A DNA stretch of 37,057 bases from a virus (lineage: Duplodnaviria > Heunggongvirae > Uroviricota > Caudoviricetes), in IMG/VR virus record IMGVR_UViG_2648501920_000014, positions 1 to 37,057 of that record; one strand, written 5' to 3'. This document shows positions 484-30,390 of this stretch, piece after piece. The notes under the pieces were generated by a model. The model made no database searches and had not been told where the DNA came from. It saw nothing but the letters and a program-made list of their open reading frames with translations. How positions within the stretch are numbered: the first letter of the stretch is position 1; each line of letters starts with the position of its first letter. A program made the position numbers and the translations under genes.

Positions 484-1109
484 ACCGCCAGCACCTTACT
501 GGCATTGATGTATCGCGCGCGCCGGTCGTCGATGCCGTTCCGGCCACCATTGATAATCAGAGTTACACGTGCAATATCGCCGGTATACTTCATGCATCCT
601 TTGCTGGCAAAGAACCACGCCGCGCTACGAGCCGCGTATTCGTCCTGCGCCAGCAGTTCAGGACTCTCCAGCAGGTCAACCTTAAGACCGTTTCCACAGT
701 CACGATAGTTATTCAAACCGGTAACCTGGATAAGCCCGCGCCCACGGTAGTTCCAGCCATCACCAGGGGCATTGTTCCCCATGCGTTTGCTGTACACCAG
801 ATTGGCAATCGCTCTCTGGCGCTCAAGTGGCAATGGTGGTTCGCCTGCACGTCGCCCCAATGCGTTGGCCTGTCCCTGAGTGAGACGCCCAGCCCGAACA
901 AAGTTAGCCAGTCCGCTGACGCTGTAGTTGAAATTCTCCTGCAACCGGGTGAAGCCTCCAGACTCATGCCCGACCTGAGCAATAAACATAGCCTGATCTT
1001 CTGGTTTGCTGATACCAAACTCTTTCATCGCAGAAGTTATATGCGAGAACCAGCGTGCGGCCAGTGCCTCGCTGATACCAGCAGCTCGCTGGAATTGTTT
1101 AATCTCCAT
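480..1109 (-). CDS. Endolysin, glycoside hydrolase family 19 (chitinase-like lysozyme)
   Basis: ATG at 1109; motifs [18 protein letters not shown] and NY typical of GH19 phage endolysins; sits between holin candidates and Rz. Confidence 0.8.
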
Positions 1110-1407
1110 GTTTAGACCTCGATACTTTGAAAATTTGAACGACGTTACCGCGCGTTTTAATAACCGCAGCTAGCATGACAGCGTTGATAATGACCTCAGA
1201 TAAATCCACAGCCATTGGCGTACGTAACCAGATTGCATAGGCGACACGAACAGGAATACTGGCCGCAGCAACAATCAGGAAATAAGCAAGCCATCCTCCC
1301 CACCTTCGGTGTTGAGAGCCGTTACGCCGGAATGTGACAACGCGAATTGCTATGCCAGTGCAAATAACTGCATTGGTGATAAGCAAAAAAAACTCATGCG
1401 TTACCAT
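1099..1407 (-). CDS. Small membrane protein, putative holin or antiholin
   Basis: ATG at 1407 preceded by GGGGAG Shine-Dalgarno; 102 aa with hydrophobic helices; immediately upstream of endolysin. Confidence 0.45.
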
Positions 1408-2000: not shown

Positions 2001-2297
2001 TCAAATAGAGAAATAAACACAAAAACAAAAAACAACAGGAACAGCAAAATCCAACAGACTTCCCACATCCCACACGCGTGGATCAAAACCTCCCCACCAC
2101 GGCATGTTGATACGTTTCCCTTTCCCAAACTTTTCTATCCAGCGATATTCTGCCTGGGTGTGTTCACGCGCAATGAAGAACGTACAACCGGCTATCGCAC
2201 CGTAAGCCCAGTTTCCGGTAAAAATACCAACCAGTACCTGAGCCACAAAAGCGCAAAGCGAGTGAAGAAATGGAGTGACATCAATGCTCTTAATCAT
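2001..2297 (-). CDS. Small hydrophobic membrane protein, function unknown
   Basis: ATG at 2297 overlapping tail fibre stop (ATGA); 98 aa, hydrophobic, AT-rich gene between tail fibre and lysis genes. Confidence 0.4.
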   Translation of the reverse strand: MIKSIDVTPFLHSLCAFVAQVLVGIFTGNWAYGAIAGCTFFIAREHTQAEYRWIEKFGKGKRINMPWWGGFDPRVWDVGSLLDFAVPVVFCFCVYFSI

Positions 2298-4483
2298 GAA
2301 ACTTCCCCATTGGTTGAAAATATGGCTCCTCCAACGCCAAGTGTATTTCGTGTTGTGCTCAACCTCAGAGGGCTGGAGTCAGAATTAGAATATCCTGTAG
2401 CAGAAATAAAAGATCCTCCACTAATAGTCAACTGCGGAACATCGGCTATATCTGAATAAGTTCTGTCAGCAACAGTATTATTTATAGCCACATATGATCC
2501 AAAAAAACTTCTTATTGTTTGGTTTTTAACTTTACTTCCTTCAATGGTTATCCTACTACCACAGTCGGCAATAAATCCTGAATCTGCATCCAGCGTTGCA
2601 TTCATAAAAGAAGCTTCAGATCTCTCTACATCAATCCATCTAATATCTTTTGTGGGATTTGCACCAAATACATGACAAATATTAGAGTTAAACCTTACAC
2701 CATCTTGGAGGTGCATTAATTTTTTTATATCTGTACCCCATAGCCTTGGAAAATTAACAGATGCTCCTGCATGGCAATCAAATCCCAGCTCAGCCCCTGA
2801 GATATCTACAGCCTTTCCTGAAATAACAGCACCAGTGTCTGCATTAACGGCTGTTCCACAATTGCGCATATCATTACCAGCAACATCAACGCAACCCGCA
2901 CCATCAATACGCACACCAAGTGCACATCCATAAAAACCTTTTTCAATATTTGGTTCAAGGACTTTACCACTTGTTTCTGCATCACTTTCTTCAACGTCAT
3001 GTCGTCTTGCATCAACATATGCTGTATGAATGCAGGTTAATCCACGATATGAGCAATGTATAGTTTTATGGTCGCGTATATTAACATTTGAACCATCTCT
3101 TACATTCCATCCTATATAACAATAGCTTGCACTTGACCCCTGAAAATCTGCTTTAACATTATAAATACAATTAACTGACGCAACCGTACTCTCTGTGCAC
3201 CGTTCAAACTTGCTTACAGGCATTGATGCCTTGACATTATTTACCAGTTGCAGGGAAGAGTATCTGCTATAAGAAAAATCACATACGTAATACCCTTCTG
3301 GCATATATGCAGCAACACTTTCCTCATCAGGAGCACATCCGGTATGATATGCACTAATTTTTGCACCAAAACTACCATGAATTCCAACGTAGAACTTTCG
3401 AGCACCTGAATACGGATAGAAATTAAGTTCAGCTTTTTGAGTTACAATAAATGCACAAACATCGCTATCATCTCTATTTTCTTCGATCTGAATAGCAAAT
3501 ACAGGACTTTTTGCTGCATCGCAAATGTAAAATAAATACTTGTATTCGTAATACGTTCTAACGATTTTAGTAAACAAACGAGTGTCAGAGAAAACCACTG
3601 AGTCTTCTGATGTTATTTTAATCCAAGACAAATCAACACCTGAACTGAATTCAATTTGATAGTTGATAATATGCCCGGTCTTAATTCTTATTTCGCAGAA
3701 AGCATTACCACCATCCCACATAGGTCTCATTGACTGGGCTGCAATGATTGCATCTTTGAGTGTAGGGTAATCACCCCATTCGCCAACAGTAATAACAAAA
3801 GTATAATATGAGTTAAAAACAGCGGCATTTTTGCCTTTGGATATCAACTCCTTAATCATAAAAATATTATCTTCGTAATCACAAGGAGAAATTATATCCC
3901 TCATTTTGCTTTGAAATGTTCGTTGTCTTGCCCCGCTTCCTGACGGTATAAACCAACCAAAACCACCAACAACCCCGGCGATTGCAGCATCGACATAATT
4001 ACGCATTGAGCGATTATTTACAGCGTCCTGCTCAAATGATGGATCTGCAAGGTTAGAAATTTTGTTTTGCTTTGCATCGTAATATTTTGCAAGCAAAGAT
4101 GGTTTCATCAATGCACGTCTGAACCACCCAAAACATCGCTGGATCAGCATCGTCAGGTAGTCAAATGCATCTTCATGAACTTCGGGGAAAAATTTTCCCT
4201 GATTGCGAAGATCAGTCTCCTGCACCACATCAAGCACACGCTCTATCGTAATTCGCCAGCCAGCAGCAAGCGGCGACGGGAGAACCACTTCACCGCCACT
4301 ATAAGTGCCCGCTCCAGTTACCTTATAACCGGTATCCAGAACCAATTCTGTTACGTTCCCGTTCAGGTCAGACACCTGAACAACCAGGTCGGTTTTTTTG
4401 AAAATACGGAAGGTATACGGAAATGATGTCGTAACGCCGTTACCGGTGTATTCGTTGTGGTCAACTTCGGTTGAGACCGTCAT
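2294..4483 (-). CDS. Tail fibre / tailspike with T7-type N-terminal anchor and beta-helix-like distal receptor-binding region
   Basis: ATG at 4483; first ~110 aa match the T7 tail-fibre N-terminal pattern; remainder is Gly/Asn/Asp/Val/Ile/Cys-rich and visibly AT-rich. Confidence 0.7.
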   Translation of the reverse strand: MTVSTEVDHNEYTGNGVTTSFPYTFRIFKKTDLVVQVSDLNGNVTELVLDTGYKVTGAGTYSGGEVVLPSPLAAGWRITIERVLDVVQETDLRNQGKFFPEVHEDAFDYLTMLIQRCFGWFRRALMKPSLLAKYYDAKQNKISNLADPSFEQDAVNNRSMRNYVDAAIAGVVGGFGWFIPSGSGARQRTFQSKMRDIISPCDYEDNIFMIKELISKGKNAAVFNSYYTFVITVGEWGDYPTLKDAIIAAQSMRPMWDGGNAFCEIRIKTGHIINYQIEFSSGVDLSWIKITSEDSVVFSDTRLFTKIVRTYYEYKYLFYICDAAKSPVFAIQIEENRDDSDVCAFIVTQKAELNFYPYSGARKFYVGIHGSFGAKISAYHTGCAPDEESVAAYMPEGYYVCDFSYSRYSSLQLVNNVKASMPVSKFERCTESTVASVNCIYNVKADFQGSSASYCYIGWNVRDGSNVNIRDHKTIHCSYRGLTCIHTAYVDARRHDVEESDAETSGKVLEPNIEKGFYGCALGVRIDGAGCVDVAGNDMRNCGTAVNADTGAVISGKAVDISGAELGFDCHAGASVNFPRLWGTDIKKLMHLQDGVRFNSNICHVFGANPTKDIRWIDVERSEASFMNATLDADSGFIADCGSRITIEGSKVKNQTIRSFFGSYVAINNTVADRTYSDIADVPQLTISGGSFISATGYSNSDSSPLRLSTTRNTLGVGGAIFSTNGEVS

Positions 4484-4587: not shown

Positions 4588-4602
4588 TTACCTTTCGGGT
4601 AA
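4588..4602. promoter_or_regulatory. Operator-like inverted repeat TTACC-TTTCG-GGTAA
   Basis: 15-bp dyad with A/T flanks; between tail fibre start (4483) and LexA box; one of at least 14 copies. Confidence 0.4.
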
Positions 4603-4982: not shown

Positions 4983-5072
4983 ATTTACATCGCACTCCTC
5001 TTGTGCCATAGTAATCGGGCACTGGCAAAATCCAGTGCCGGGATTGGCGTCCCGGGTTACTAAGTGGCGCAT

Positions 5073-5096
5073 ACCACGCCAGACGTGGTTTTTTTA
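5073..5096 (+). terminator. Rho-independent terminator (ACCACG-CCAGA-CGTGGT + T-run)
   Basis: 6-bp stem, 5-nt loop, followed by 6-7 T; ends an ORF-free transcript of about 120 nt that starts near 4975. Confidence 0.5.
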
Positions 5097-5251
5097 TGCG
5101 TTAAGCACAGCTATATCCGAATTATGGTGGGCTGGGCAGGGGTCCGAAAGGACGCCGGTACCACTTAGGCCGGTACGCCAACCTTGTCCAGTTCACCACC
5201 AGTAATTGGCGTTGCGGTGGTGATTAAAATCACTAAGTGGAGATAACCACC

Positions 5252-7405: not shown

Positions 7406-9880
7406 TTATTGCGGAGTGACATCCTGAGGTCGCCACCAGTATGTCTGGTTAAACTCTTTCTTCGAACGTTGCTCCATTTTACGCAAATAGCCTGGTGAAA
7501 AATACTCCTGCATCTGATTAAAGATCATGTGATCGAGAGCCGCCTTCAAGTACCAGAGATTCGCACCAGGCATCAAACCTTTCCCAAGCTTAACCAGATC
7601 ACCACCAGTCTGCTCATTCTTCCCTTCCACAGCATTTAACGGTATGCCCTGAGCAATCTTCACTACGTCATCAACCAGACCAGCTACCGGGCCAAGCATC
7701 GACGCTAGTGCGCCGCTCCCGTACCTGGTGTGGTCAGAGAAAAGAAAATCACCATACAACCCTGCCCCACCACCTTTTAAAAATGCATTTATCCAGAATT
7801 TAACCATGTTGTCACCGGTCATTTCTTTTGGATTTCTCCCATTAATAAGATCAGTAATCTGCATGGAAAGAGCACCAAGCATGGTTGTGCTTGCTAAAAA
7901 CGTTGCTATATATGCCGCACGCCCACCAGCAGACGGCATCCCCATAGCTCTATGCCAGTGACGCATAACTACCGAGATAGGGAACGATTTAAACAGGAAA
8001 ACACTTCTCGTTAATTCACCTTTCCATGTTCCACGCTGAAGACCAGACCCTACGAACATCTGTTCACGTGCGCCCGGTGTAATAACAGCCATATCAACTT
8101 CTTCAGTTACGGCACCGAGCAGTTTACGCATTGCCTCAAATTTCACGCGTTCAGGCTCACCAAGATGTTTAACTGCTGAATCAGGGATACGCATAATGCT
8201 TTCCGGTGTCAGCATCGTATTATTACCGTTCCCCCAGTCCTCCTGTTGCGCCAGCTTCCATACGCTCCAGTCTGTGTCAGTAATCCCTTTGCTTTTCAGG
8301 ATACGAAAATCAGAGTCATCGAGGCTACGAAGGTCTGGTGTCCGTGACACTACTTCTCCCAGGCTTCCCATCATGGTTACGCCATAGGCGCGCTTGTGCG
8401 CATCTGACCATGCTGTAAGCCCACTGGCACGCATTACCGCCGTTGCCGCCCAACGAGACACAGACGGCCCCATATTATCCATCGCCCAGCGGTTAACGCT
8501 GCCAAGTAGAGATTCCATCGCCAGGCCAGCGCGGCGCGCCCGCGCAAGCTCAGTACGGTTCGTTGGATCCATAGCTTCAAGCTGGTTGCGAAATAACTGG
8601 TTCATTGGAAGGTTGGTAACCTTCGCAGACAGATACATGGTTCCAAGATCAGAGAACGATGACAGCAACGCGGATCCGAGTCTGCTGGCAACCAGCCAGT
8701 TGCGGATATTGTCAGACCATCGCGCGATGTGCGGATTCGCTACAGGCTGTGTTTTTCCGGAAATAAAGTTGTACAGGTTCTCTGTTTTGTTCGCCAGACG
8801 CTCGACGCTACCGGTTTTACTCGGGTTAGCTGTTGCCGTTTCTGCCTTCACCTGATCAAGAAGAGAGCGGAAAACATGATCGGGGTTTGGGCCATATGTT
8901 TCCACCAGTGCAATATCTTTACTGATACCTTCAAGGTGACCGACCATGATTTCCCATAGAGAGCGATCGCCATAAAGTTGCTGATATTGCAGATAGGAAT
9001 CTGCATCTTTGAAATGTATCTGTCGTGATGCATTACCACGGTTAGCACGTGCGCCGGAAATTCGCATTCCGGTATCAGTAAGCTTATTCAGCCCACCAGT
9101 AGCGATCGTGTTATAAGCCTCTCCAAGAAATGCAGACAACTCGGCATCGTTCATCAGTTGTCCATCGGCTCGGGTATAATATTTGCGATCCAGCTTACCT
9201 ATAACATCGCTAACCCATTTATCTTTTGATACCGCCCCAACCTTTTCCATAGAATGATGTTGAGGGATCCCCCAGTTTTCGAGATAGCCAATGTCCCCAC
9301 CAGCATCATTAAACCGGCGGCGCAGCAGCTCTGTAACTTCTCTCCACGCCTTAGCACCTTTTCTTGCTTTAGCATTGCCAGTATTTTGCCCCCGCATTTC
9401 ATATACCAGGTCACGTACGCCCGCTTCATCTTCAAACAGACCAAAAAAGCGAGGATCAACTGCTTCGAATGCCTCCTGCAATTGACTCAATGCATAATCA
9501 CGGGTGGCTTTTGTTCTGGATTCAACAGAGAGGAAATTCGATTTACCGTCTGCATTAAAAGCAATAGTACGGTTAAGAGCGCCAAGTTTCCCATCAGCCC
9601 CTTGATAGCTATTGATAAATTTATCCAATCTCTGACGTGCGGCTATAGTGAGGGCCACACGACGTTTCTTTAATGCCGCTTCTCGCTGTAATTCTTCAGA
9701 TGCCAATTGTGCTGCACGATACAACCGTTCTGATTCGGAAAGTTGTCGCCACGACATCGGGTCATCACGAGCAATGGAGCGCATATTTCGATAAATGCGG
9801 TCTTCAATGTTCTGTATTTCTCGCGCCGTTAACGTGCGCTGCGCCGCCTGCTGGACCGCTTGTATACATTCCTGTCTCAT
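7406..9880 (-). CDS. Large virion internal / ejection protein (824 aa)
   Basis: ATG at 9880; long ORF in the structural operon between internal-protein genes and the tail fibre region; assignment by position and size only. Confidence 0.5.
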   Translation of the reverse strand: MRQECIQAVQQAAQRTLTAREIQNIEDRIYRNMRSIARDDPMSWRQLSESERLYRAAQLASEELQREAALKKRRVALTIAARQRLDKFINSYQGADGKLGALNRTIAFNADGKSNFLSVESRTKATRDYALSQLQEAFEAVDPRFFGLFEDEAGVRDLVYEMRGQNTGNAKARKGAKAWREVTELLRRRFNDAGGDIGYLENWGIPQHHSMEKVGAVSKDKWVSDVIGKLDRKYYTRADGQLMNDAELSAFLGEAYNTIATGGLNKLTDTGMRISGARANRGNASRQIHFKDADSYLQYQQLYGDRSLWEIMVGHLEGISKDIALVETYGPNPDHVFRSLLDQVKAETATANPSKTGSVERLANKTENLYNFISGKTQPVANPHIARWSDNIRNWLVASRLGSALLSSFSDLGTMYLSAKVTNLPMNQLFRNQLEAMDPTNRTELARARRAGLAMESLLGSVNRWAMDNMGPSVSRWAATAVMRASGLTAWSDAHKRAYGVTMMGSLGEVVSRTPDLRSLDDSDFRILKSKGITDTDWSVWKLAQQEDWGNGNNTMLTPESIMRIPDSAVKHLGEPERVKFEAMRKLLGAVTEEVDMAVITPGAREQMFVGSGLQRGTWKGELTRSVFLFKSFPISVVMRHWHRAMGMPSAGGRAAYIATFLASTTMLGALSMQITDLINGRNPKEMTGDNMVKFWINAFLKGGGAGLYGDFLFSDHTRYGSGALASMLGPVAGLVDDVVKIAQGIPLNAVEGKNEQTGGDLVKLGKGLMPGANLWYLKAALDHMIFNQMQEYFSPGYLRKMEQRSKKEFNQTYWWRPQDVTPQ

Positions 9881-9885
9881 TTAAT

Positions 9886-11688
9886 TTAACCTCTCAAGAA
9901 ACACGCCACAGCAACATCAAACAGGCTGGAATCCTGTATTGCCTGCTCACTTTCCCTGTTCGCTTCATCCAGTACTTCACGCGCACTGCGCGATTGTGGA
10001 TTACCATCATCATCCAGCACGGTGATTATCATGTCAGGTGATTCAATCAGCGAGTCTTCAGCTATGCGCAGATCAATATCTCCTGCCTGATCTGACATCA
10101 TTTTTTGTTCTGCCTGTTGCAATATTTTATCAGGCTCAAAAGGAGCTACTTCGTCTGGCGTCCTGACCTCTGCTGTTTTATAGAATGAAACAGCCTGAGC
10201 ATTAAGTTCACTTTCTGCCTGCTGTCTCCGAGCCAGTTCTGCTCGAGCTTCAAAAAACTGACCGCCAGGCTCGTGCGGTGCCAACGCGTTACGGGAAAAT
10301 TCCAGGCGTTCTTGTGCCTGCCGGATTCGTTGATCAATATCGCGAAGTCTGGCCTGTTTATCTGATCGAGCACGAGACAAAGCTTTACCGCTACCGGTTG
10401 GCTCTTCTGCAAGAATTTGTGCACGCTGTTCAGTGAGATTTTCAATAATTCGTTGGCTATTAGCGATTTCAGACTGGTAAACCTGTCTATCTCCACGCGG
10501 CAAAAGCTGCGCGGCCTGTTCTTCAAGCAACCGATTTTCTATAGCGCGCGCCGTTACTCCATCATCTACAGATGACAGAGCCTCATTAACTGCCTGAGAC
10601 AGCAGACTCTTGCGCCAAGGAATTTCACTGAAAGATGCAGACTCAACAATGCTGGAAACGTCTACAGGTCTCCCCTGGCTAACATCAGACATAGCTTTTC
10701 GCAGAGCCTGAATGTGAGAATTGCGCGAAAGCACGTTGATCGGCACGCCGGGCGCAATATCAATTTCAGCATGATGAGCGGCATTCGCCGCCAGTGCAGC
10801 ATCGATATCAACTGGTGAAAAATTTGGTGCGCTTGTAGACTCGCCGCGAGAGTTAATAAATCTGCCGACACCACCAAACGCCACCCCAAGAACAGCATCA
10901 ATAGCAATTGCCTGTCGATCCAACACATCATACTGGTTAGCCATTTCGCTATAGCCACCATCACGAAGTGTTTTTGCAGTAAGCCCACGCTGTGCCATAC
11001 CGAACGCAATATTTGTACCTGCGGCATAGGCAATATCTGGCGTTGCACGTACTGCTGTTGCTGCGGCGCGTCGCACTGAACTCTCACCCGTCCGCGCAAG
11101 CTGAGCCGCCACACCTTCCGCCAGCGCACCACCAGCACGTAACCCGAGGCTCATAGGGATCAGTGTTCCGGCACCAGCAGTAATGCCCTGCACTAATCCC
11201 GCTTCCTGCGCCGTCCTGAAATCAGCACCCTGTGCTGTCAGCCGTTCAAACTCAGAAAAACCCTGTAGCGAAGTTACCGCCGCTGCACCTCCGACAGGAC
11301 CACCGAGCGTTGTACCGACAACAGCCTGCCCGCCCATATCGAACAACCCATAAAGAACCTGCCCGGCGGTTCCGGTTGTCGCGGCATCAGGCGTCAGCCG
11401 CTTAACCTGCTGCTCTGCTAGTTTTCTCTGCTCGGCAATGTATGAAACTGAAGTATCATTGAGCGATGTGTTTTCGTTAATAAACTGAGCAATCGGGGAT
11501 ACGATTTTATCCATCCCTGCCCATAGCAACTGATCTGGCTTTGCCACCAGCCCGGAGTACAAACCAGACAATGCCGCTCCTACAGCATTGTCGAAAAAAC
11601 CAACATAGCTGTTAAAGCCAGCTGGATTTGATGCTGCTTCGTCAAGCTGCTGATTCTGGCTTACTGGATTAAGGCCAAAGTAACTCAT
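9886..11688 (-). CDS. Virion internal protein (600 aa), Gly/Ala-rich
   Basis: ATG at 11688; glycine/alanine-rich central region; structural operon context. Confidence 0.5.
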   Translation of the reverse strand: MSYFGLNPVSQNQQLDEAASNPAGFNSYVGFFDNAVGAALSGLYSGLVAKPDQLLWAGMDKIVSPIAQFINENTSLNDTSVSYIAEQRKLAEQQVKRLTPDAATTGTAGQVLYGLFDMGGQAVVGTTLGGPVGGAAAVTSLQGFSEFERLTAQGADFRTAQEAGLVQGITAGAGTLIPMSLGLRAGGALAEGVAAQLARTGESSVRRAAATAVRATPDIAYAAGTNIAFGMAQRGLTAKTLRDGGYSEMANQYDVLDRQAIAIDAVLGVAFGGVGRFINSRGESTSAPNFSPVDIDAALAANAAHHAEIDIAPGVPINVLSRNSHIQALRKAMSDVSQGRPVDVSSIVESASFSEIPWRKSLLSQAVNEALSSVDDGVTARAIENRLLEEQAAQLLPRGDRQVYQSEIANSQRIIENLTEQRAQILAEEPTGSGKALSRARSDKQARLRDIDQRIRQAQERLEFSRNALAPHEPGGQFFEARAELARRQQAESELNAQAVSFYKTAEVRTPDEVAPFEPDKILQQAEQKMMSDQAGDIDLRIAEDSLIESPDMIITVLDDDGNPQSRSAREVLDEANRESEQAIQDSSLFDVAVACFLRG

Positions 11689-20873: not shown

Positions 20874-21170
20874 TCACTCCTGTTCACTGGCCTCTTTGGC
20901 CATCTTCAAATACTGTTCAGGGCAATGCGCCATAACGCGCTGAAACAGTTCCAGCGCCAGATTGCGTTGCCCCTCATTAAATGCCATTGCCATAGCGTCC
21001 ATCGGTGAGATAGCGGAAAACACACGGCCTTTCTCCAGCACCGACCAGACAACGCGACGCCCCTGTTCACTGCTCATGACAAAGCGAATGTCATCAATTT
21101 CACGCTGTGCCATGTCACGTTGCTTACGGGCGTTTTCTTCTTTCAGTTGATCGTCTTCGTAATCTGTCAT
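20874..21170 (-). CDS. Hypothetical protein (~98 aa)
   Basis: ATG at 21170 overlapping portal stop (ATGA); track ORF starts at GTG 21185. Confidence 0.45.
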   Translation of the reverse strand: MTDYEDDQLKEENARKQRDMAQREIDDIRFVMSSEQGRRVVWSVLEKGRVFSAISPMDAMAMAFNEGQRNLALELFQRVMAHCPEQYLKMAKEASEQE

Positions 21171-22846
21171 TGTGATTGCCCACACTGACCACTAACTGCA
21201 TTCGCCATAGCTGACAAAACACTCGGATCCGAAGTTTTAGCTTCGCTTAGCGTCTTGGCACCCTGTGCCGCCGCCATCCCCATCGCCATCATTTGTTGCT
21301 GCTGTTGTTGCTGTGCCCGTTGCTGGCGAGCCTGCTCAACCTGTTCCTGCGGAACAATGACGGTTGGAGACACTCCGGACATATCAGCGAATGCATCGAT
21401 CGCCTGATCAACGTTGAGTTTGTCGAGAGCTTCTGGTTTCGCTTGCGCAAGTTGACCAATGAAGTTAACCGTGGACGCCAGACTGGACAGGCCGATAGAC
21501 TTCTGCGCCTGAGCCATGACGGAAATGTATTCGACCTTCAGGGGCATACCTTCCATCGCGTCAGGCGGTGGCGGCAGCATGTTTTTACGCACCATCATCG
21601 AGAAAGCGCGGTCAATGAGAGGGTTAAGACATTCGTCGTTCAGACGCTCCAGAACCGGCCCCAACATCAGAAGTTTTTCTTCTTTCATTTCGATCACCGC
21701 TTCAACAGGCATCGAGCGGGTATTGATGTTCTGCAACATCATGAACAGATCGACAAAGTAGGCGCTGTTAATGATTTGACGAGTGTCCTGAATGTCTGCT
21801 ACCAGATCTGCTGTACTGGGGTTAACCAGATAAGCAGGCCTGAAACCATCCTGACCAGTAATCTGATCGATATACGTGATGTCGCCAGGAAGAAGGGAGG
21901 CGCGCTGATTCTTGAGGGAAGTCGGAGCAACCATCGGCGGATTGGTGGCTTTATCAATCAACTGCGACTTGCGCTTCTGGAGAAGCTGCAATGCCTTAAC
22001 AGGTCCAAGCGCCAGCATACCCGGGCATGATGATCCATAAACATCTTCGCCATTAACTTCCCAGCGCGGAGCCATAATTGGAAACTCATCAAATCCGGAC
22101 TCACGCAACAACTTGTCGTTATCGCCACCAACCTCGTAATAAACCGATTTGAATGGCTTGTTCTTGCTATCCAGCTTCGATGTATCGCGGTCAATGTTCG
22201 GGTAAACCGAATGCATCACGTCAATCCACTTCTCGTAGGTGCCGCTTTCCCACATGCTTTTTACGGATTCGCTGACGTTATTTAGCCCGAACTCCTGAAC
22301 AAGCTGACGAACAGTCATAGAGAACTTGCGAAAACAGGTGTCCACACTGCCACGAGGTGAGTTAGCAAGGTAGTAACTGCCTATCGGGAATGGCATTGTG
22401 CGAATGATGTCCTCGTCATCCTCCAGCACCGCCATTGCGCCAGTGCTGTATGTGCCGAGGCTTCCGTATAACTGCGGAAGAGACTGGTAGAGATTCGACT
22501 TATTGAACATATCGTTCATGCGGTTCTGCACCGCCTCGAGCCACAACTTAACAGGACCATAATCCATCATTTCAGGATCTGGCGTAGCCAGGCGAAACCA
22601 CGGACGCGCAGGGCTTGTGATGCCTGACATCATGCCGCTGGCGAGAGTGCGCGCCGCCATAGTCCCGGTCGAATCAATAATGCGTGTATTGCGTCGATCG
22701 TTACGGTTGACCTCAGAAGTCAGAAAGCGGGAACCACGCGGGTTGATGTAATCACTCAACTCGCGCCAGTGCGGCTCGAACGACTGACGCTCGCTTTCAA
22801 GTTGTGCGAACTGTTTGTTCAATCGCTCTTTAGTTGTTTCCGCCAT
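21167..22846 (-). CDS. Portal (head-to-tail connector) protein, 559 aa
   Basis: ATG at 22846 with GGAG SD; size and position next to terminase; Gln-rich C-terminal tail. Confidence 0.7.
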   Translation of the reverse strand: MAETTKERLNKQFAQLESERQSFEPHWRELSDYINPRGSRFLTSEVNRNDRRNTRIIDSTGTMAARTLASGMMSGITSPARPWFRLATPDPEMMDYGPVKLWLEAVQNRMNDMFNKSNLYQSLPQLYGSLGTYSTGAMAVLEDDEDIIRTMPFPIGSYYLANSPRGSVDTCFRKFSMTVRQLVQEFGLNNVSESVKSMWESGTYEKWIDVMHSVYPNIDRDTSKLDSKNKPFKSVYYEVGGDNDKLLRESGFDEFPIMAPRWEVNGEDVYGSSCPGMLALGPVKALQLLQKRKSQLIDKATNPPMVAPTSLKNQRASLLPGDITYIDQITGQDGFRPAYLVNPSTADLVADIQDTRQIINSAYFVDLFMMLQNINTRSMPVEAVIEMKEEKLLMLGPVLERLNDECLNPLIDRAFSMMVRKNMLPPPPDAMEGMPLKVEYISVMAQAQKSIGLSSLASTVNFIGQLAQAKPEALDKLNVDQAIDAFADMSGVSPTVIVPQEQVEQARQQRAQQQQQQQMMAMGMAAAQGAKTLSEAKTSDPSVLSAMANAVSGQCGQSQ

Positions 22847-22860
22847 TTCAATGACTCCGG

Positions 22861-23067
22861 TTACTGACCAAGCAGCGTTTTACCGCTGGTATTAGCGGTT
22901 GATGTGTCGCCCTGAGAACCGGTAAGCAGCGTAGAACTACGACCAGCAGCAGCGCGACGGCGACGTGTTTCTTCGTCGCGGGCATCAACAACGGCGGCAT
23001 CCTGCTCCTGTGGTGCTGCCTGAACTTCTGGTGTTGCAGGCACTGATGGTGAGCTACCCATGCACAT
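22861..23067 (-). CDS. Small acidic Ala-rich protein (68 aa), unknown
   Basis: ATG at 23067 preceded by the same GGAGTCATTGA leader as the portal gene; stop TAA at 22861-22863. Confidence 0.35.
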   Translation of the reverse strand: MCMGSSPSVPATPEVQAAPQEQDAAVVDARDEETRRRRAAAGRSSTLLTGSQGDTSTANTSGKTLLGQ

Positions 23068-23157
23068 ATCAATGACTCCGTACGCAATTAAATTATTACC
23101 AATTTAACCACATATGATTTATTTATCGTAGAAGGTTGACATTTAACGCGTGAATTA

Positions 23158-23172
23158 TTACCTTTCAGGTAA
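23158..23172. promoter_or_regulatory. Operator-like inverted repeat TTACC-TTTCA-GGTAA
   Basis: 15-bp dyad about 90 nt upstream of the 23067 start; a TTGACA hexamer lies at 23136-23141. Confidence 0.4.
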
Positions 23173-23494
23173 CCAAAGAGCTCATTCTGGTTACTAACCT
23201 GACTGGCTTGTCGTTAAATTAAACAGGTGGAGTGAGCTTTTATTTTGAGCAGTACGGCGTATGGCACATGCGCCGATAGCGGTCTGGATACGTTTAAGGG
23301 GCACCCTCCCTTGCTCGGGCAAACGAACCAGGTAGCCGGAATGTGCAAGTCGAGCGGTTTTATTCCGCGCACGGGGATTCACCATCCCGGCGATTCGGTG
23401 TGACGCCTCGGAAGAGACGAGGGTACAACGATGAGAGCATTTATGGAGCCGCGACAAAGTGTGGCGCCTTAACAGGCTAAGTGCTCTCAGCGTT

Positions 23495-23571
23495 GTGGCA
23501 TTAGCTCAGTCGGACAGAGCAACCGCCTTCTAAGCGGTTGGTCGCAGGTTCGAATCCTGCATGCCACGCCA
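23495..23571 (+). tRNA. tRNA-Arg (anticodon TCT, reads AGA)
   Basis: Cloverleaf read by hand: acceptor GTGGCAT/ATGCCAC, D-stem GCTC/GAGC, anticodon stem ACCGC/GCGGT with loop CTTCTAA, T-arm GCAGG-TTCGAAT-CCTGC, discriminator G, encoded CCA. Confidence 0.85.
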
Positions 23572-23614
23572 GAATCACGCCTAAGGACCGTGATGCCAGA
23601 AGTTCCAGGGGCTT

Positions 23615-23657
23615 GGCGGTGATGGTTTCCCTTGAAGGGCTATCACCGCCCTTTTTA
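23615..23657 (+). terminator. Rho-independent terminator downstream of the tRNA
   Basis: 9-bp stem GGCGGTGAT/ATCACCGCC with structured loop, followed by CTTTTT. Confidence 0.6.
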
Positions 23658-23734
23658 CAGCAGGACGCCATTGCGATGACTTCATGCTGTAAACCAGTAC
23701 AGCCACGGAAGGCATAACTCATTGCTTCCAGTTC

Positions 23735-23758
23735 GCCCGGTTCGCCGGGCATTTTTTT
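23735..23758 (+). terminator. Hairpin GCCCGG-TTCG-CCGGGC + T7 run (terminator or attenuator) immediately before the DUF2829-like gene
   Basis: 6-bp GC stem with TTCG tetraloop followed by ATTTTTTT; the SD AAGGTGA starts right after it. Confidence 0.45.
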
Positions 23759-23769
23759 AAGGTGAGATT

Positions 23770-24066
23770 ATGAGCGAAACATCAACAGTATCTTTCTCCA
23801 CTGCTTTGTCATCACTCAAAGATGGTAAGCGCATTGCACGTGCCGGATGGAATGGGAAAGGCATGTATCTGCAATTAGTTCAGCCACCGCAATCAGCCAC
23901 TCCGAATGATTGGCGCTATGACGTTACATGTGGTGACGAGTATACATTTGTACCTGGCGTTAAACTTCTACCGTGGATTGGGATGAAAACTGCTGACGGT
24001 TGCTTTGTACCGTGGCTGGCATCTCAAACCGATCTGCTATCTGATGACTGGATTGTAATTCAATAA
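23770..24066 (+). CDS. DUF2829-like small phage protein (98 aa)
   Basis: ATG at 23770 with AAGGTGA SD; motifs LKDGKRIARAGWNGKGMYL, PWIGMKTADG, PWLASQTDLLSDDW match the DUF2829 pattern from memory. Confidence 0.65.
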   Translation: MSETSTVSFSTALSSLKDGKRIARAGWNGKGMYLQLVQPPQSATPNDWRYDVTCGDEYTFVPGVKLLPWIGMKTADGCFVPWLASQTDLLSDDWIVIQ

Positions 24067-24070
24067 CACC

Positions 24071-24082
24071 GTGACATGTCAC
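24071..24082. repeat. 12-bp perfect palindrome GTGACATGTCAC (copy B), preceded by ATAACACC
   Basis: 5 nt after the DUF2829-like stop; flanking ATAACACC also present at copy C; followed by hairpin AGCCAGC-CTATGA-GCTGGCT. Confidence 0.5.
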
Positions 24083-24156
24083 AAACAGCCAGCCTATGAG
24101 CTGGCTTTGTTTTATCCTCATCAGAGGATATCAACGACATTATCCCCACCAGCGGA

Positions 24157-25632
24157 TTAAGCATAGGGATCGTAATCTGTGATGGCCTTGCCTTGCTGGT
24201 TCTGCTGCCCGGGAATTCGCAGACGCTTCGACACAGGGAACGCAAACGTCAGCAGTAGCGCATCGCCTTTACCAGGCGAACGCCCAAGCCGCTCCTTGAT
24301 ATCTTCCTTCGGTTCGATAACGATTTTACCGTCCACTCGAACTTTGTACTCTGCCGCCGACAGATCGTCCGCTGTTTCCTGGTCATCCAGCATCCCGCCC
24401 AGCCTCAGCCATGTCTTGCATGAGTTGAACATCTCCCCACGCTTGTTGAGCATCTGCTGGTCAGTAGACGCGCCACCGAACGGAACAAGTTGCCATGTGC
24501 GCCCCCAACCATCACCGATTGACTTCAGACCGGTACCGTAACCAAAGTCGATGAACACTGCGTCAGCCTGATACAGGTCTTCAAAGTCAGCGATACGCTT
24601 CGCCATAATCAGATCGTCGGTAGTCTTGTTGCCAGTCCACAGCACCTTACTGTGTAGCCCCTGCCGCAGGTATATCACCGCGTCATCAACGCCTGAATAT
24701 GCCGGGTCAACACCGATTATCACCGGAGCATGCGCCACCTGCGCAGCGGTTACCACCCGTTTCATTGCCTCATCAGTAAGACCGGTAGGGATAAACTGCA
24801 ATTCAGATGCATCAGGGAATATGCCGCGCACACGGATTTTAACGAAGTCGCTGTCTTCCCCGTAGTCATCAACCCATTTCTGCAACTGCTGTTTGTTAGT
24901 GCCTTCCACCGTCCGGCTGTCAATCTGCGCAGTTTTCCAGCGGTGTTTATATTTGCGGAAACATTCACGGAATCGCCCGGTATTACGCGTCGGGTTTCCG
25001 AACGCCACCCAGATAATCTCAGTGTCTTCGTCAGTTAGCGCACCTTCGGCAACTTCCCACACCAGATCCGCAATGTTCGACGCTTCATCGAATACCACGA
25101 TGATGCGTTTGCGCTCGTTGTGTAGTCCGGCGAATGCCTCAGTGTTGTGCTCAGACCAGGGGATTGCGTCAGCTCGCCACCGCTTGTCGTGCCCAGGATC
25201 ATTGCTGTACATCGCGGTAGCGGTACAGGTAAACCAGTCTTTCGTGATAGCAAGGTTCGACCACTTGATAATTTCCGGCCAGGTCTTCGTTCGTAGCTGG
25301 TTGTCGGTGTTGGCGGTCACCACGACCTTACAATCCTCGCAAGTGGACATGCCCCAGTTGATCAGCATTGAGATGAATGCGGATTTACCAATACCGTGAC
25401 CAGAAGCACGTGCCAGCATAAGCGGCTGATATCGCGTCTCTGGATTCTGCAGGTGATCACGTATCTCTCGGAACGCATCGGCCTGCCACTGACGTGGACC
25501 GGTGGCATGTGCCAGTTCAGTACCCTCTTCCCCCCACGGGAACGCATAGAGGGCATAGCCAAGCGGATCGTGAGTGAACCCTGCAATATCCTCGATCAAC
25601 TGCTCTTCAGGAGATAACGCTGTATCTGTCAC
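24157..25632 (-). CDS. Terminase large subunit
   Basis: GTG start at 25632 overlapping terS stop (GTGA); Walker A-like GHGIGKS; 491 aa with ATPase then nuclease layout. Confidence 0.85.
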   Translation of the reverse strand: MTDTALSPEEQLIEDIAGFTHDPLGYALYAFPWGEEGTELAHATGPRQWQADAFREIRDHLQNPETRYQPLMLARASGHGIGKSAFISMLINWGMSTCEDCKVVVTANTDNQLRTKTWPEIIKWSNLAITKDWFTCTATAMYSNDPGHDKRWRADAIPWSEHNTEAFAGLHNERKRIIVVFDEASNIADLVWEVAEGALTDEDTEIIWVAFGNPTRNTGRFRECFRKYKHRWKTAQIDSRTVEGTNKQQLQKWVDDYGEDSDFVKIRVRGIFPDASELQFIPTGLTDEAMKRVVTAAQVAHAPVIIGVDPAYSGVDDAVIYLRQGLHSKVLWTGNKTTDDLIMAKRIADFEDLYQADAVFIDFGYGTGLKSIGDGWGRTWQLVPFGGASTDQQMLNKRGEMFNSCKTWLRLGGMLDDQETADDLSAAEYKVRVDGKIVIEPKEDIKERLGRSPGKGDALLLTFAFPVSKRLRIPGQQNQQGKAITDYDPYA

Positions 25633-26225
25633 TGATTACCATCCTGACGTTCTTTGAGTCGCTTCCTGGCTGCCGCTATGCGATCAGCGATTGTCACATT
25701 CACATTAACATCCATGCGTTCTTTGAACGCGTTGACGTCGACGTGCTTACCAATCAGTTCGAGGTTCTTCACCTTGTCAGGCCATTTAATTTTTTTGAGG
25801 ATTGTCTCTATCGAATCCTCGTTCATGTTCATGATGGTCGATGACAGATCAAAGCCACTAAGCGTAGTGCGCCAGATTTTCGGCCACTCGCGGATTGGCT
25901 TAAGGCTCCCATCGTCGTTGAGGATATCAATCACGTCCATCTGGTCGATCTCCACCAGGCGCATGAGAACGTAATCAGCACTGACACGCATTCGTTTGTT
26001 GCGCTCTTCCATCAACTCGGCAATCCGTTTTTGAATGCGTTCATCGCGCATCATGACACTGGCTTTAACTGCCGCTGTATTTGGGGAGAATCCTGCGTTA
26101 ATCGCTGCCTGAGTCTGGTTTTCAGGCGTTTTGATGTATGACTGACAATAAGCCTCCTGCATTGCTGTGAGCGGCTTAAATTGCGTTGATTTGCGTTTAT
26201 AGGTTTTAGGTTCAGCAGGCATCAT
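25629..26225 (-). CDS. Terminase small subunit
   Basis: ATG at 26225 (track ORF extends to TTG 26303); HTH-like segment TAMQEAYCQSYIKTPENQTQAAINAGFS; directly upstream of terL. Confidence 0.6.
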   Translation of the reverse strand: MMPAEPKTYKRKSTQFKPLTAMQEAYCQSYIKTPENQTQAAINAGFSPNTAAVKASVMMRDERIQKRIAELMEERNKRMRVSADYVLMRLVEIDQMDVIDILNDDGSLKPIREWPKIWRTTLSGFDLSSTIMNMNEDSIETILKKIKWPDKVKNLELIGKHVDVNAFKERMDVNVNVTIADRIAAARKRLKERQDGNQ

Positions 26226-26257
26226 AACCACCGTGGTAATAGTTACCGTTGTGGTAA
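26225..26257. promoter_or_regulatory. Two adjacent operator-like repeats (TAACC-ACCGT-GGTAA and TTACC-GTTGT-GGTAA) at the terS start
   Basis: Sites at 26225-26239 and 26243-26257, overlapping the terS start codon and its SD. Confidence 0.4.
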
Positions 26258-26299
26258 TAGTACCATGCAAAATAAAGCCGCCATAGTTGGCGGCAGTAT

Positions 26300-26512
26300 T
26301 CAAAGCCCATCAAATTCATCGTAAAAACTCTCGTCAAGATACCCTTCCCATTTACCGCGAATGAAAATTACATCCTCGCCGCAAGGGTGCTGACTGTCGA
26401 TAACTATATCCCTCCTGGAGCAACCATACTTATGCATGAGAAATTTAATCTCTTTCGGAAAATTTGCTGAGTTATCTCTCATATCTTCAAGGTCGTAGCG
26501 TATTTTTGGCAT
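26300..26512 (-). CDS. Hypothetical protein (70 aa)
   Basis: ATG at 26512 with AAGGTG SD (track ORF starts at GTG 26533 inside the palindrome); stop TGA 26300-26302. Confidence 0.45.
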   Translation of the reverse strand: MPKIRYDLEDMRDNSANFPKEIKFLMHKYGCSRRDIVIDSQHPCGEDVIFIRGKWEGYLDESFYDEFDGL

Positions 26513-28792: not shown

Positions 28793-29578
28793 TTACTTGA
28801 TAAATCCTGACGCCTTTCCCCGCCTGTATTCCTCCATCAGCCACTGCGCCGGTGTTATTCCCCCAAGGGTGGCGGCGTTAGGCATGCACCCGAAACTTCG
28901 CCCTGGTGGATGGTAAACGTCTCTCCCTGTGTCCGGAGGCGTACTCATGGGTTCTGGCTTTGCCTGTATGCTGATCACCGGATCGGGTATCTGCTGTCCG
29001 GAAGCCACCTTTTTCGCCCAATCATCGAGCAGCCTGCGCGCGTGTTTCTCAACCTCAATCTCGCTAAGCTGGCGCTGATACATTGCACGGCGGGTATCAC
29101 ATACGACCCAGTACATAACCGGATGTCGCCACGGGAATCTTTCGGGACCACCAGGATATAAACTTTTTTCCTTGCTGTACCGGTGAAACTCCGCCATCAC
29201 ATCGTCAATGGTGACGCCAAGAACCATCTTGCTGTCTTTACACCACTTGATGAATTGCCCTGGCGACGGCCAGAACGGAGACTCACTGGCGCGGGCGTGG
29301 CGCATACCAGCAGAAACCTGTTCACGGGTTCGGATCCCCCCTTCGGCAAACGCAGCAATCCACTGCTGTTTTGCAGCAACTTCCTGCTCTGGCGTCTTCA
29401 GGTTGGTTACCACTGCCGCCGGAAACAGTTGTTTCAGCTGTTTGAAAAGGGCATCAACAAGCCTCTCTGCTGACATGTTCACCACGTTGTCATTGTTGGT
29501 GTACTGATGCTCATAACCTGACATGCGAGAAAGGGCTTCTCCGTCACGGTTTTGTATCGCGGTAAAAACGTTGTTCAC
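28793..29578 (-). CDS. Replication protein P-like (DnaB helicase loader)
   Basis: Aligns by eye to lambda P (LFPA, EQVSAGMRHAR, PFWPSPGQFIKWCKD vs PFLPSPGQFVAWCRE); GTG at 29578 has GGAGGA SD and GTGA overlap with O-like stop (track start is ATG 29593). Confidence 0.7.
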   Translation of the reverse strand: MNNVFTAIQNRDGEALSRMSGYEHQYTNNDNVVNMSAERLVDALFKQLKQLFPAAVVTNLKTPEQEVAAKQQWIAAFAEGGIRTREQVSAGMRHARASESPFWPSPGQFIKWCKDSKMVLGVTIDDVMAEFHRYSKEKSLYPGGPERFPWRHPVMYWVVCDTRRAMYQRQLSEIEVEKHARRLLDDWAKKVASGQQIPDPVISIQAKPEPMSTPPDTGRDVYHPPGRSFGCMPNAATLGGITPAQWLMEEYRRGKASGFIK

Positions 29579-30390
29579 AAGAAATCCTCCCATGCTTCAG
29601 GGCTGTTCCAGTGCGGAACGTTGTTATCAGGTAATGTTGATTGCTTCTGTCTGCTAATCTGCAGCCGCCTTGCCAGCTTCTGCTCCCACTGTGCCTGATG
29701 GTATGCCTTACCCTCAGCCATCCAGTAAATTCTGAACTCTGCAAGTTCCTGTGCCGTTGGCAGACTGTCCAGGTAGATCCCCTGCAATGAGCTTTTCCGA
29801 AGAAAGTCATCTGATGGCTGCCATTGTTCATGCATGACAAATTTGCCTAATTGCCCTGGCCCACCAGGAGGAACAAAGTTATTCATCACGGCGTTGTTTG
29901 CGCCGGGGTCATGATGCACAGAATCCCCGTTTTTTGTCCTGCTCTCCCTCTCTTGGTTAAATGACTGGTTATATGACTGGTTCTGGATCCCGTTTTTGGG
30001 ATCATTCAACATCCCGTTTTTGGGATCATTCAACATCCCGTTTTTGGGTATATTCCCGTTTTCGGTAACATTACCGTTTTCGGGTTCATTACCCCCTTCC
30101 CGGTTGCCTTTAATGTTCCCGTTTTTGGTTATATTAAGAGAGAAAACCCGCACTCTTTTCGTCGCTCCCTTTCTCTCTCCGGTATCTGAAATAAGCCCCA
30201 TTTTCATGAGTGATATAAGCCCGGCCTGCACGGTTTTTTTATTCAGGCAAGTGTCTTTAACGAGGCGTTCTATGCTGGGGTAGCAGAGGTTATATTCATC
30301 GGCTCTGTCAGCCATCGAGAGCAGTATGAGCTTTAATGACGAGCTACCTGGATCTGTCTCCCAGGCCCAATCTGTTGCATGTCTGCTCAT
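29575..30390 (-). CDS. Replication initiator (O-like), N-terminal HTH domain, iterons inside the gene
   Basis: ATG at 30390; repeated PKNGMLND peptide is encoded by the DNA iterons; immediately upstream of the P-like gene. Confidence 0.65.
   Translation of the reverse strand: MSRHATDWAWETDPGSSSLKLILLSMADRADEYNLCYPSIERLVKDTCLNKKTVQAGLISLMKMGLISDTGERKGATKRVRVFSLNITKNGNIKGNREGGNEPENGNVTENGNIPKNGMLNDPKNGMLNDPKNGIQNQSYNQSFNQERESRTKNGDSVHHDPGANNAVMNNFVPPGGPGQLGKFVMHEQWQPSDDFLRKSSLQGIYLDSLPTAQELAEFRIYWMAEGKAYHQAQWEQKLARRLQISRQKQSTLPDNNVPHWNSPEAWEDFL
29987..30135. repeat. Origin-like iterons: ATCCCGTTTTTGGGATCATTCAAC x2 perfect plus 4 degenerate CCGTTTT(T/C)GG cores
   Basis: Perfect 24-bp tandem copies at 29987-30010 and 30011-30034; degenerate cores follow; AT-rich stretch at 30129-30148; ATGACTGGTT direct repeats at 29961-29982. 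Confidence 0.6.

Follow-up and report, generated by a model that had tools for sequence, protein, structure and literature searches.

How a small plus-strand block comes to lie among the minus-strand late genes of a tailed phage, and what is expressed from it, is the question raised by this locus. The stretch analysed, hereafter the window, is the whole of positions 1 to 37,057 (37,057 nucleotides, nt) of the IMG/VR record IMGVR_UViG_2648501920_000014, a virus of the class Caudoviricetes. An earlier note, made from the letters alone, had described a tRNA-Arg gene and a small DUF2829-like gene as a cassette inserted antisense between the terminase and portal genes of this phage. In this study, we found that the region 23136-24114 is probably one plus-strand, early, repressor-controlled and terminator-gated accessory transcription unit of epsilon15/phiV10-like phages (genus Uetakevirus). 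As a moron or anti-defence slot, the unit is of a type already known, and its cargo (Tad2) and its tRNA are likewise of known kinds. The novelty of the region lies in element X, a conserved structured RNA of ~245 nt at 23251-23497 (+). This element was overlooked in the earlier note; the 360 nt between promoter and tRNA are no mere spacer.

The 1.3 kb around the cassette showed 97-99% identity to phiV10, TL-2011b, the O157 typing phages and related E. coli phages, and ~82% identity to the Salmonella phages SPN1S, SPN9TCW and epsilon15; the phages named here all belong to Uetakevirus. Matches to Synechococcus phages in the first BLAST search were explained by similarity of the tRNA-Arg alone. 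The window was aligned with phiV10, epsilon15 and SPN9TCW, and all three relatives had the same layout as the window, with a plus-strand unit between the terminase and gp3-portal operons. Conserved in this four-phage alignment were the regulatory block 23068-23175, a segment consisting of the 3' half of the first terminator (T1), a spacer, the second terminator (T2) and a Shine-Dalgarno (SD) sequence (23640-23766), and also the stop-codon region and a third terminator (T3). The open reading frame (ORF) in between was unrelated from phage to phage: the window has a Tad2-like cargo, phiV10 and epsilon15 carry a Gp49/Gp66 gene (PF13876) in its place, and SPN9TCW encodes a membrane protein of phrog_11227 there. 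The junction of T2 and SD, GGGCATTTTTTT-AAGGTGA, was common to 28 loci with differing cargo genes, which fall into at least six unrelated families, four of them with no Pfam match. The DUF2829 cargo is rare in this cassette, with 3 carriers among 5,426 complete E. coli genomes; the Gp49 version is the common one. What had been described as a cassette inserted in this phage is instead a genus-wide unit with swappable cargo, since relatives share both its layout and its junctions. One cargo family of 139-201 amino acids (aa), which starts with MKT(V/A)DMLAKYLNEWP and has no Pfam match, occupies the same slot as the Tad2-like gene in loci L126, L138, L143, L127, L036, L015, L064 and L077, and is a candidate accessory or anti-defence gene.

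Element X was supported by covariation and by a covariance model (145 bits for the window). On the plus strand, its fold comprises helix P1 (23255-63 with 23267-75); P2, whose apical part is variable (23279-87 with 23328-36); the invariant 19-mer GGTAGCCGGAATGTGCAAG (23331-49); a variable hairpin at ~23350-70; P4 (23374-77 with 23385-88); a pseudoknot between CACC in the P4 loop (23380-83) and GGUG at 23397-400; P5 (23406-10 with 23418-22); and P6, which closes a variable insert (23424-43 with 23478-97). The covariation test was performed on a MAFFT alignment of 28 diverse X cores with hand-drawn P1, P2, P4, pseudoknot and P5. Paired cells made up 96.8% of the total, compared with 27-48% when the partners were slid, and 11 of the 30 pairs had changed on both sides, which was matched in none of 500 shuffles. 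In three lambdoid-type sequences, the pseudoknot CACC/GGUG has become AACC/GGUU. The P6 insert ranges from 3 to 92 nt, and its cognate strands paired at -26.4 kcal/mol compared to -20.4 kcal/mol for non-cognate strands (0 of 10,000 permutations). The fold is specific to the plus strand, because several invariant G-U pairs would become A-C mismatches on the other strand. Rfam 15 gave no match to X at E<=10 on the X strand of the window, mEp390 and mEp460 variants and none at the gathering score in 13 further loci, and the invariant strings of X were not found in the literature searched. X is apparently a widespread, strongly supported and undescribed structured RNA.

Several other readings of X were considered and rejected. 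As a coding sequence, it would involve the overlapping ORFs 23245-23403 (+) and 23194-23457 (-), which match no family; its variation is compensatory, and its variable hairpins differ by insertions and deletions. A DNA site such as attP or an origin does not agree with the strand-specific G-U fold, with the co-orientation of X and its adjoining tRNAs, or with the presence of X in P1, which does not integrate. The 3' end, UGCUCUU...GUUGUGG, could be read as a Nus-dependent, rrn-like boxA/boxC; this segment is a helix strand that covaries with its partner, and other variants have CGCCGUUUCC and similar strings in its place. Finally, P5 was considered as an N-type boxB, and there is no N-like protein after X in mEp460, while P1 and the Uetakeviruses have no N.

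We examined the distribution of X. In BLAST searches, 23254-23494 was conserved at ~80% in unrelated phages. In P1, P7, D6, SJ46 and RCS47, X is part of the C1-controlled ban operon, with trnI on one side and ban on the other; the P1 copy (NC_005856, 71023-71191) fills the unannotated gap between these two genes. In the lambdoid phages mEp460, mEp390, cdtI, 2H10, Ayreon and the Stx2c/Stx2k phages, it directly follows cI and the cI terminator in the same orientation. BLAST also found X in Klebsiella phages, and the covariance model detected it in the Klebsiella Lastavirus SopranoGao and in a Stenotrophomonas phage, again after a cI-like gene. A search with the 19-mer GGTAGCCGGAATGTGCAAG returned at least 120 IMG/VR loci, whose distinct cores number 103 and form 37 clusters at 90% identity. 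It also returned 24 stretches of representative genomes, nearly all of Enterobacteriaceae type; two matches in metagenome-assembled genomes are probably mis-binned. Among the 5,426 complete E. coli genomes, 1,840 contained X, almost always unannotated; 554 of its places are on plasmids. By the covariance model, each locus has a single copy, that of epsilon15 being a degenerate remnant of 37 bits, and nothing was found in the HK022 immunity-region loci (L011, L012) or in phage LLS.

Some copies of X are linked to tRNA genes. A tRNA adjoins X on the same strand in 46 of 130 instances: the start of a tRNA-Arg(UCU) is the exact 3' end of X in 28 of the 130, and a tRNA(CAU) ends ~15 nt before its 5' end in 18. 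In the window, the outer three base pairs of P6 use G23495-G23497, the first three nucleotides of the tRNA-Arg, so that a cut by RNase P would generate the 3' end of X. In the epsilon15 locus (L002, 3525-3630), what is left of X is P1 with the 5' half of P2, followed directly by the 3' half of T1; the remnant is labelled 'RNase III site' in the epsilon15 record. SPN9TCW-type phages (L003, 2843-3200) have the 13-mer TTCCCTTGATGCT twice, once in the loop at the apex of P2 of X and once in the T1 loop, and epsilon15 appears to have lost the rest of X and the tRNA by deletion between two copies of it. Since epsilon15 is without most of X and without the tRNA, both are dispensable for the phage and for keeping T2 and the cargo. 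Two observations concern neighbours of X elsewhere. In locus L100, ~370 nt downstream of an X copy, a tRNA-like gene (1077-1203, minus strand; Rfam 43.9 bits) has a 64-nt insertion at the anticodon arm and was not called by ARAGORN. In mEp460 (L008, 2749-2826, plus strand), X is directly followed by a 25-codon ORF that starts with MRRLMRER and is arginine-rich like an N-type RNA-binding motif; it is not conserved in the Stx2c/Ayreon variant and is probably a chance ORF.

The tRNA itself was called by ARAGORN as the only one in the whole window, a tRNA-Arg(tct) with encoded CCA at 23495-23571 (+). The full Rfam tRNA model scored it at 73.3 bits against a gathering score of 29. By eye, the cloverleaf is intact, with a 7-bp acceptor stem without mismatch, the canonical anticodon loop CUUCUAA, a discriminator base and the encoded CCA. 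The well-formed tRNA-Arg(UCU) of the earlier note thus stands: it does not score as a pseudogene, and judged on these features the gene looks functional. It showed 82-84% identity to the tRNA-Arg genes of Stx phages. The earlier note had also suggested counting the rare codons that such a tRNA would read, and AGA and AGG occurred at 7.2 and 5.9 per 1000 codons in the window ORFs, a set that is partly spurious. The frequencies in E. coli are ~2 and ~1 per 1000, and the window lies several-fold above them. AGA codons are clustered in 2294-4483 (13 codons), 7406-9880 (9), 9886-11688 (7) and 29575-30390 (6), the first three of which include tailspike and tail genes; none was found in the capsid, portal and terminase genes of the window. 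The tRNA may help to translate the AGA-rich tail and tailspike genes, a role in codon supply that is plausible, not compelling.

The cargo of the window is an ORF of 98 aa with an ATG start at 23770-24066 (+), preceded by the SD AGGTGAG (23760-23766). It matched PF11195 (E=3e-24; 85.7 bits against a cut-off of 25) over profile positions 2-73 of 73. The family assignment of the earlier note is right, and what its label DUF2829 left out is the known function (Tad2 anti-Thoeris sponge/AcrIIA7): the Pfam name, formerly DUF2829, is now 'Thoeris anti-defense 2-like' (Tad2-like). Among solved structures, the protein matched HgmTad2/AcrIIA7 (8kbi, 3e-15), ModTad2 (9eib, 2e-14), Tad2 (8v3e, 3e-14), SptTad2 (8wjd, 4e-13) and Gp34.65 of SPO1 (8sme, 1e-11). 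In a previous report, SPO1 Tad2 was shown to form a tetramer and to sequester 1''-3' glycocyclic ADP-ribose (gcADPR) through contacts made by W25, N26, W73, S76, T78 and D79 (10.1101/2023.05.01.538930, Yirmiya et al.). The window protein has W27 and N28 in a GWNG motif and W82, S85, T87 and D88 in WLASQTD, with the same spacing as these contacts; the residues were mapped by motif and by alignments to solved relatives, not by direct alignment to SPO1. It has also been reported that Tad2 proteins bind cGAS-type signals (PMC10680739, Li et al.) and that Cas9 is blocked through tracrRNA by a longer AcrIIA7, which has an additional head domain (PMC13133391). Membership of the window ORF in the Tad2 family is well supported by these matches. 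By homology, the cargo would act as a sponge for the gcADPR-type signal that TIR proteins make in Thoeris-like host immunity.

Upstream of this ORF, the earlier note had placed two plus-strand terminators between tRNA and gene, the second just before the SD, and both were confirmed by scanning and folding. T1 (23615-23657, +) is a long hairpin followed by CUUUUUA, and T2 (23735-23758, +) is the hairpin GCCCGG-UUCG-CCGGGC followed by A and U7, which ends 2 nt upstream of the SD. T3 (24087-24114) is a two-way hairpin between the convergent Tad2-like and TerL genes and is conserved in the four phages. A scan for hairpins with U-tracts called sites at 23615-23650, 23735-23750 and 24087-24106; their number was not above chance (3, compared with 2.4 +/- 1.8 in shuffles). 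The stability of T1, T2 and T3 was -23.7, -12.7 and -12.8 kcal/mol, with z = -3.8, -3.1 and -3.8 against shuffled sequence. The 3' half and U-tract of T1 are conserved in epsilon15 and SPN9TCW, and in T2 two base pairs differ between the E. coli and Salmonella phages by compensatory changes that preserve the hairpin (GCCCGG/CCGGGC vs GCCCAC/GTGGGC). T3 is annotated as a terminator in the phiV10 record; in the minus direction its energy is -15.1 kcal/mol, with a poorer U-tract. The spacer between T1 and T2 (23658-23734, +) is ~90% conserved over the four phages. Together with T2, it folds (23651-23760) into three hairpins at -33.1 kcal/mol (z = -2.8), the last of which is the U7 terminator. The predicted shape resembles an Hfq-type small RNA or a tRNA 3'-trailer RNA; Rfam gave no match above noise for 23651-23758.

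On the upstream side, a predicted sigma-70 promoter lies at 23136-23164 (+), with the -35 element TTGACA (23136-23141), a 17-nt spacer and the -10 element TACCTT (23159-23164), and all three were conserved in 4 of 4 aligned Uetakeviruses. Its -10 element is overlapped by an operator-like palindrome, TTACCTTTCAGGTAA (23158-23172). The motif TTACC-N5-GGTAA with at most one mismatch occurred 13 times in the window compared to 0.52 expected, and none of 100 shuffles reached 13. The copies lie at 4588, 4968, 6035, 23158, 26225, 26243, 28679, 28741, 30687, 31024, 31072, 31784 and 31846, scattered before several operons and resembling the dispersed C1 operators of P1. These palindromes are probably operators of the phage repressor. 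In the curated epsilon15 record, a repressor site is given at the position homologous to 23158-72, further operators precede terS, gp3, the tailspike gene and early genes, and an IHF site stands beside the gp3 operator. The pattern agrees with direct repression of many separate promoters, as reported for the Rep/Ant system of SPC32H. Adjacent to the palindrome, an AT-rich block (23068-23135) contains the gp3 SD and, on the minus strand, a possible extended -10, TGGTAATAAT. The block is nearly invariant in the four phages, and the GC content of 23068-23175 is 0.315. It is presumed to be the promoter and leader of the minus-strand structural operon, and the plus-strand unit and the gp3-portal operon thus probably diverge from a shared, operator-controlled AT-rich region.

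This arrangement bears on two claims about transcription. According to the earlier note, late transcription has to cross the cassette antisense. This is not required, because TerL is followed by the two-way hairpin T3 and the gp3-portal operon has its own upstream operator block, in keeping with the separate epsilon15 operators, although some antisense read-in from TerL past T3 may occur. The cargo gene, in turn, had been held to be expressed only by terminator read-through or attenuation. A scan found no sigma-70-like promoter between T1 and the ORF, and the U-tract of T2 abuts the SD, so that transcripts of the cargo must pass both T1 and T2; expression of the Tad2 gene by read-through is accordingly most likely. 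A sponge is expected early and in quantity, as discussed in a previous report (10.1101/2023.05.01.538930), which sits badly with simple leak-through, and active antitermination was therefore considered as well.

In the proposed mechanism, the unit would be silent in the lysogen because the operator overlaps the -10 element, and it would fire on infection or once repression is lifted. The transcript would contain X, the tRNA with its 3-nt overlap, T1, T2, the cargo ORF and, as its end, T3. A cut by RNase P at the 5' end of the tRNA would free X and the tRNA as stable RNAs. A majority of transcripts would end at T1 or T2, leaving the stable RNAs in excess, and the minority of polymerases that run past T2 would yield the cargo mRNA, as in an attenuated operon.

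Some points weigh against this reading of the region. The plus-strand promoter is putative, as it falls below the threshold of our consensus scanner, its -10 element matching in 3 of 6 positions; the operator may act on the plus promoter, the minus promoter or both, which are equally compatible with the sequence. Leak-through past so efficient-looking a terminator as T2 is uncomfortable for a sponge needed early. The codon argument is weak, as the most highly expressed late genes are without AGA and the counts come from a partly spurious ORF set. Tad2 activity of the window homologue is suggested by homology, and some family members act as anti-CRISPRs instead (PMC13133391).

The awkward position of T2 would be explained if X were a cis-acting, processive antiterminator RNA like HK022 put, which would carry polymerase past T1 and T2 and give high expression of the cargo. 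X closely follows early promoters under repressor control: the distance is ~80 nt from the predicted start in the window and ~35 nt from a pL-like promoter of mEp460, which has two TTGC..GCAA operators. In the lambdoids it stands at the nutL/putL position, the first ORF after it is not N-like, and a put-like RNA has been proposed for N-less lambdoids with the same early-left genes (PMC12315714, Casjens and colleagues). Two strong terminators separate X from a promoterless cargo gene in the window, and the high conservation of its loops and junctions over unrelated phages suggests a conserved host partner. However, only chance words were shared with the HK022 put region in blastn-short, and with the negative covariance search of the HK022 loci a homology to put was rejected; likewise LLS, an N-less phage, is without X, which can hardly be the missing put-like RNA of such lambdoids. 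X is also single-copy, per phage record by blastn and per locus by the model, with no putL/putR pair. Epsilon15 lost most of X and retained T2 and the cargo, in P1 a distance of 2.3 kb separates X from Pban and ban follows X without an intervening terminator, and a termination-proof polymerase would also pass T3 into antisense TerL. No enrichment of terminators downstream of X was seen with a finder that calls ~2 sites per kb on every strand and side and so discriminates poorly. On balance, we regard an antiterminator role as unlikely. It seems similarly improbable that X and the tRNA are counter-defence RNAs, the tRNA replacing a nuclease-cut host tRNA-Arg and X serving as a decoy or inhibitor of a host RNA-binding factor, with the whole unit forming an anti-defence island. 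Phage tRNAs that neutralise anticodon nucleases are established, as in the case of PARIS and the T5 tRNA-Lys. Here, X and the tRNA share an operon with a Tad2-family gene, the cargo slot is a hot spot of accessory genes, and the tRNA-processing layout would excise X. Horizontal transfer has taken the element, at moron-like sites, into unrelated temperate phages and plasmids of P1 type, and the lack of AGA in highly expressed late genes, which weighs against codon supply, leaves room for another role of the tRNA. On the other hand, we know of no defence system aimed specifically at tRNA-Arg(UCU), no partner gene co-occurs with X, and the sequence itself points to no target for either RNA.

The region might also not be one operon at all, if X, tRNA and spacer formed a stable-RNA gene that ends at T1/T2 and the cargo had another source of expression: a promoter that went unrecognised, a late promoter that depends on an activator, or RNA processing, with T2 as a protective 5' stem. 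The strength of T1 and T2 would agree with this, as would the T2-SD junction, which stands before every cargo type as if it were a portable expression signal, and the GC content of the Tad2 ORF (0.458), compared with 0.57 in the RNA part. Yet no promoter-like site was found downstream of T1 and before the ORF, conservation of the spacer is that of a structure-like sequence rather than of a -35/-10 pair, and any transcript started upstream still meets T2, whose U-tract abuts the SD; we consider such a division highly doubtful. Our preferred reading therefore remains a single, attenuated accessory operon. As to X, we tentatively suggest that it represents an undescribed class of phage RNA, spread over Uetakeviruses, P1-type phage-plasmids, lambdoids and others, that could target a conserved host machine, be it by antitermination with RNA alone or as a decoy in counter-defence, and so enable a terminator-gated anti-immunity cargo.

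The surroundings of the unit agree with the earlier note, with TerL, a gp3-like ORF and portal all on the minus strand around the plus-strand cassette. TerL lies at 24157-25632 and TerS at 25629-26303; on the other side are the gp3-like ORF of 68 aa (22861-23067) and the portal gene (21167-22846; PF12236, E=2e-187). A minus-strand ORF at 23501-23752, corresponding to the hypothetical protein PhiV10p04 of phiV10, is antisense to the tRNA-Arg and T1/T2 and matches no family; we rejected it as a gene, and it is probably an annotation artefact. Elsewhere in the window, an isrK Hfq-binding RNA (5019-5095, +; Rfam 67.7 bits) is directly followed by a C4 antisense RNA (5120-5203, +; 66 bits). The pair is a P1-type immI (antirepressor control) module, here in a podovirus, and is also present in two X-bearing lambdoid loci, mEp460 (L008, 206-394) and L093.

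These findings have several consequences. The 'hypothetical DUF2829' gene of the slot is, by family, a putative Tad2-type sponge of immune signals, and the slot, as a genus-wide terminator-gated docking site, is a good place to seek new anti-defence genes; none of the five further cargo families seen in it has an assigned function. X is carried by about one third of complete E. coli genomes and by model phages such as P1, yet it has no database name and is a blank in annotation. Its partner, if found, could point to a second system of antitermination by RNA alone or to an RNA-based counter-defence of a new kind, and would account for the long 'empty' pL leaders of lambdoids without N. Because phiV10-type phages serve as reporter and typing phages for O157, their dispensable parts are useful for engineering, and the loss of X and tRNA in epsilon15 is a guide to such parts. 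Literature searches on the P1 ban leader and on transcription in phiV10 and epsilon15 returned nothing relevant.

Each part of the unit can be compared with known systems. Like other members of the Tad2/DUF2829/AcrIIA7 family, the window cargo is a small single-domain phage protein with a full-length domain and the gcADPR-contact motifs GWNG and WxxSxTD. The host here is E. coli and not Bacillus, and the gene occupies a terminator-gated slot in the late region of a podovirus. The AcrIIA7 with anti-CRISPR activity (9kzr) has 158 aa and an extra head domain, in contrast to the 98 aa of the window protein, which has no such domain. The tRNA shares its anticodon with the argN/argO tRNA-Arg(UCU) genes of Stx phages, and AGA is enriched in phage genes; the Stx genes lie in the Q-S region, whereas the window tRNA is head-to-tail with X in the late region.

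For X, the species 1/2 RNAs of T4 and E. coli rtT come to mind, which are non-tRNA RNAs among tRNAs, as X is flush with tRNAs of the same strand. P1 C4 and P4 CI are phage regulators processed by RNase P, and the ends of X would likewise be set by tRNA processing. Rfam links X neither to rtT nor to C4 nor to another family. HK022 put is present in two copies downstream of PL and PR and confers termination resistance through the zinc-binding domain of the RNA polymerase beta' subunit. Like X, it is a protein-free structured RNA that lies after early repressor-controlled promoters and has terminators downstream, but it consists of ~70 nt in two stems, compared with ~245 nt in six helices and a pseudoknot.

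The unit as a whole is similar to phage morons and accessory hot spots, which have their own promoter and terminator, run against the flow of the structural genes and carry swappable cargo of lower GC content between conserved junctions. Here, these features are the predicted promoter (23136-64), T3 (24087-106), the conserved junctions and the GC content of the cargo, lower than that of the RNA part. Classic morons are expressed from the prophage, whereas the -10 element of the window unit lies under an operator palindrome and expression in the lytic phase is predicted. A further difference from classic morons is that stable RNA genes and two terminators precede the cargo.

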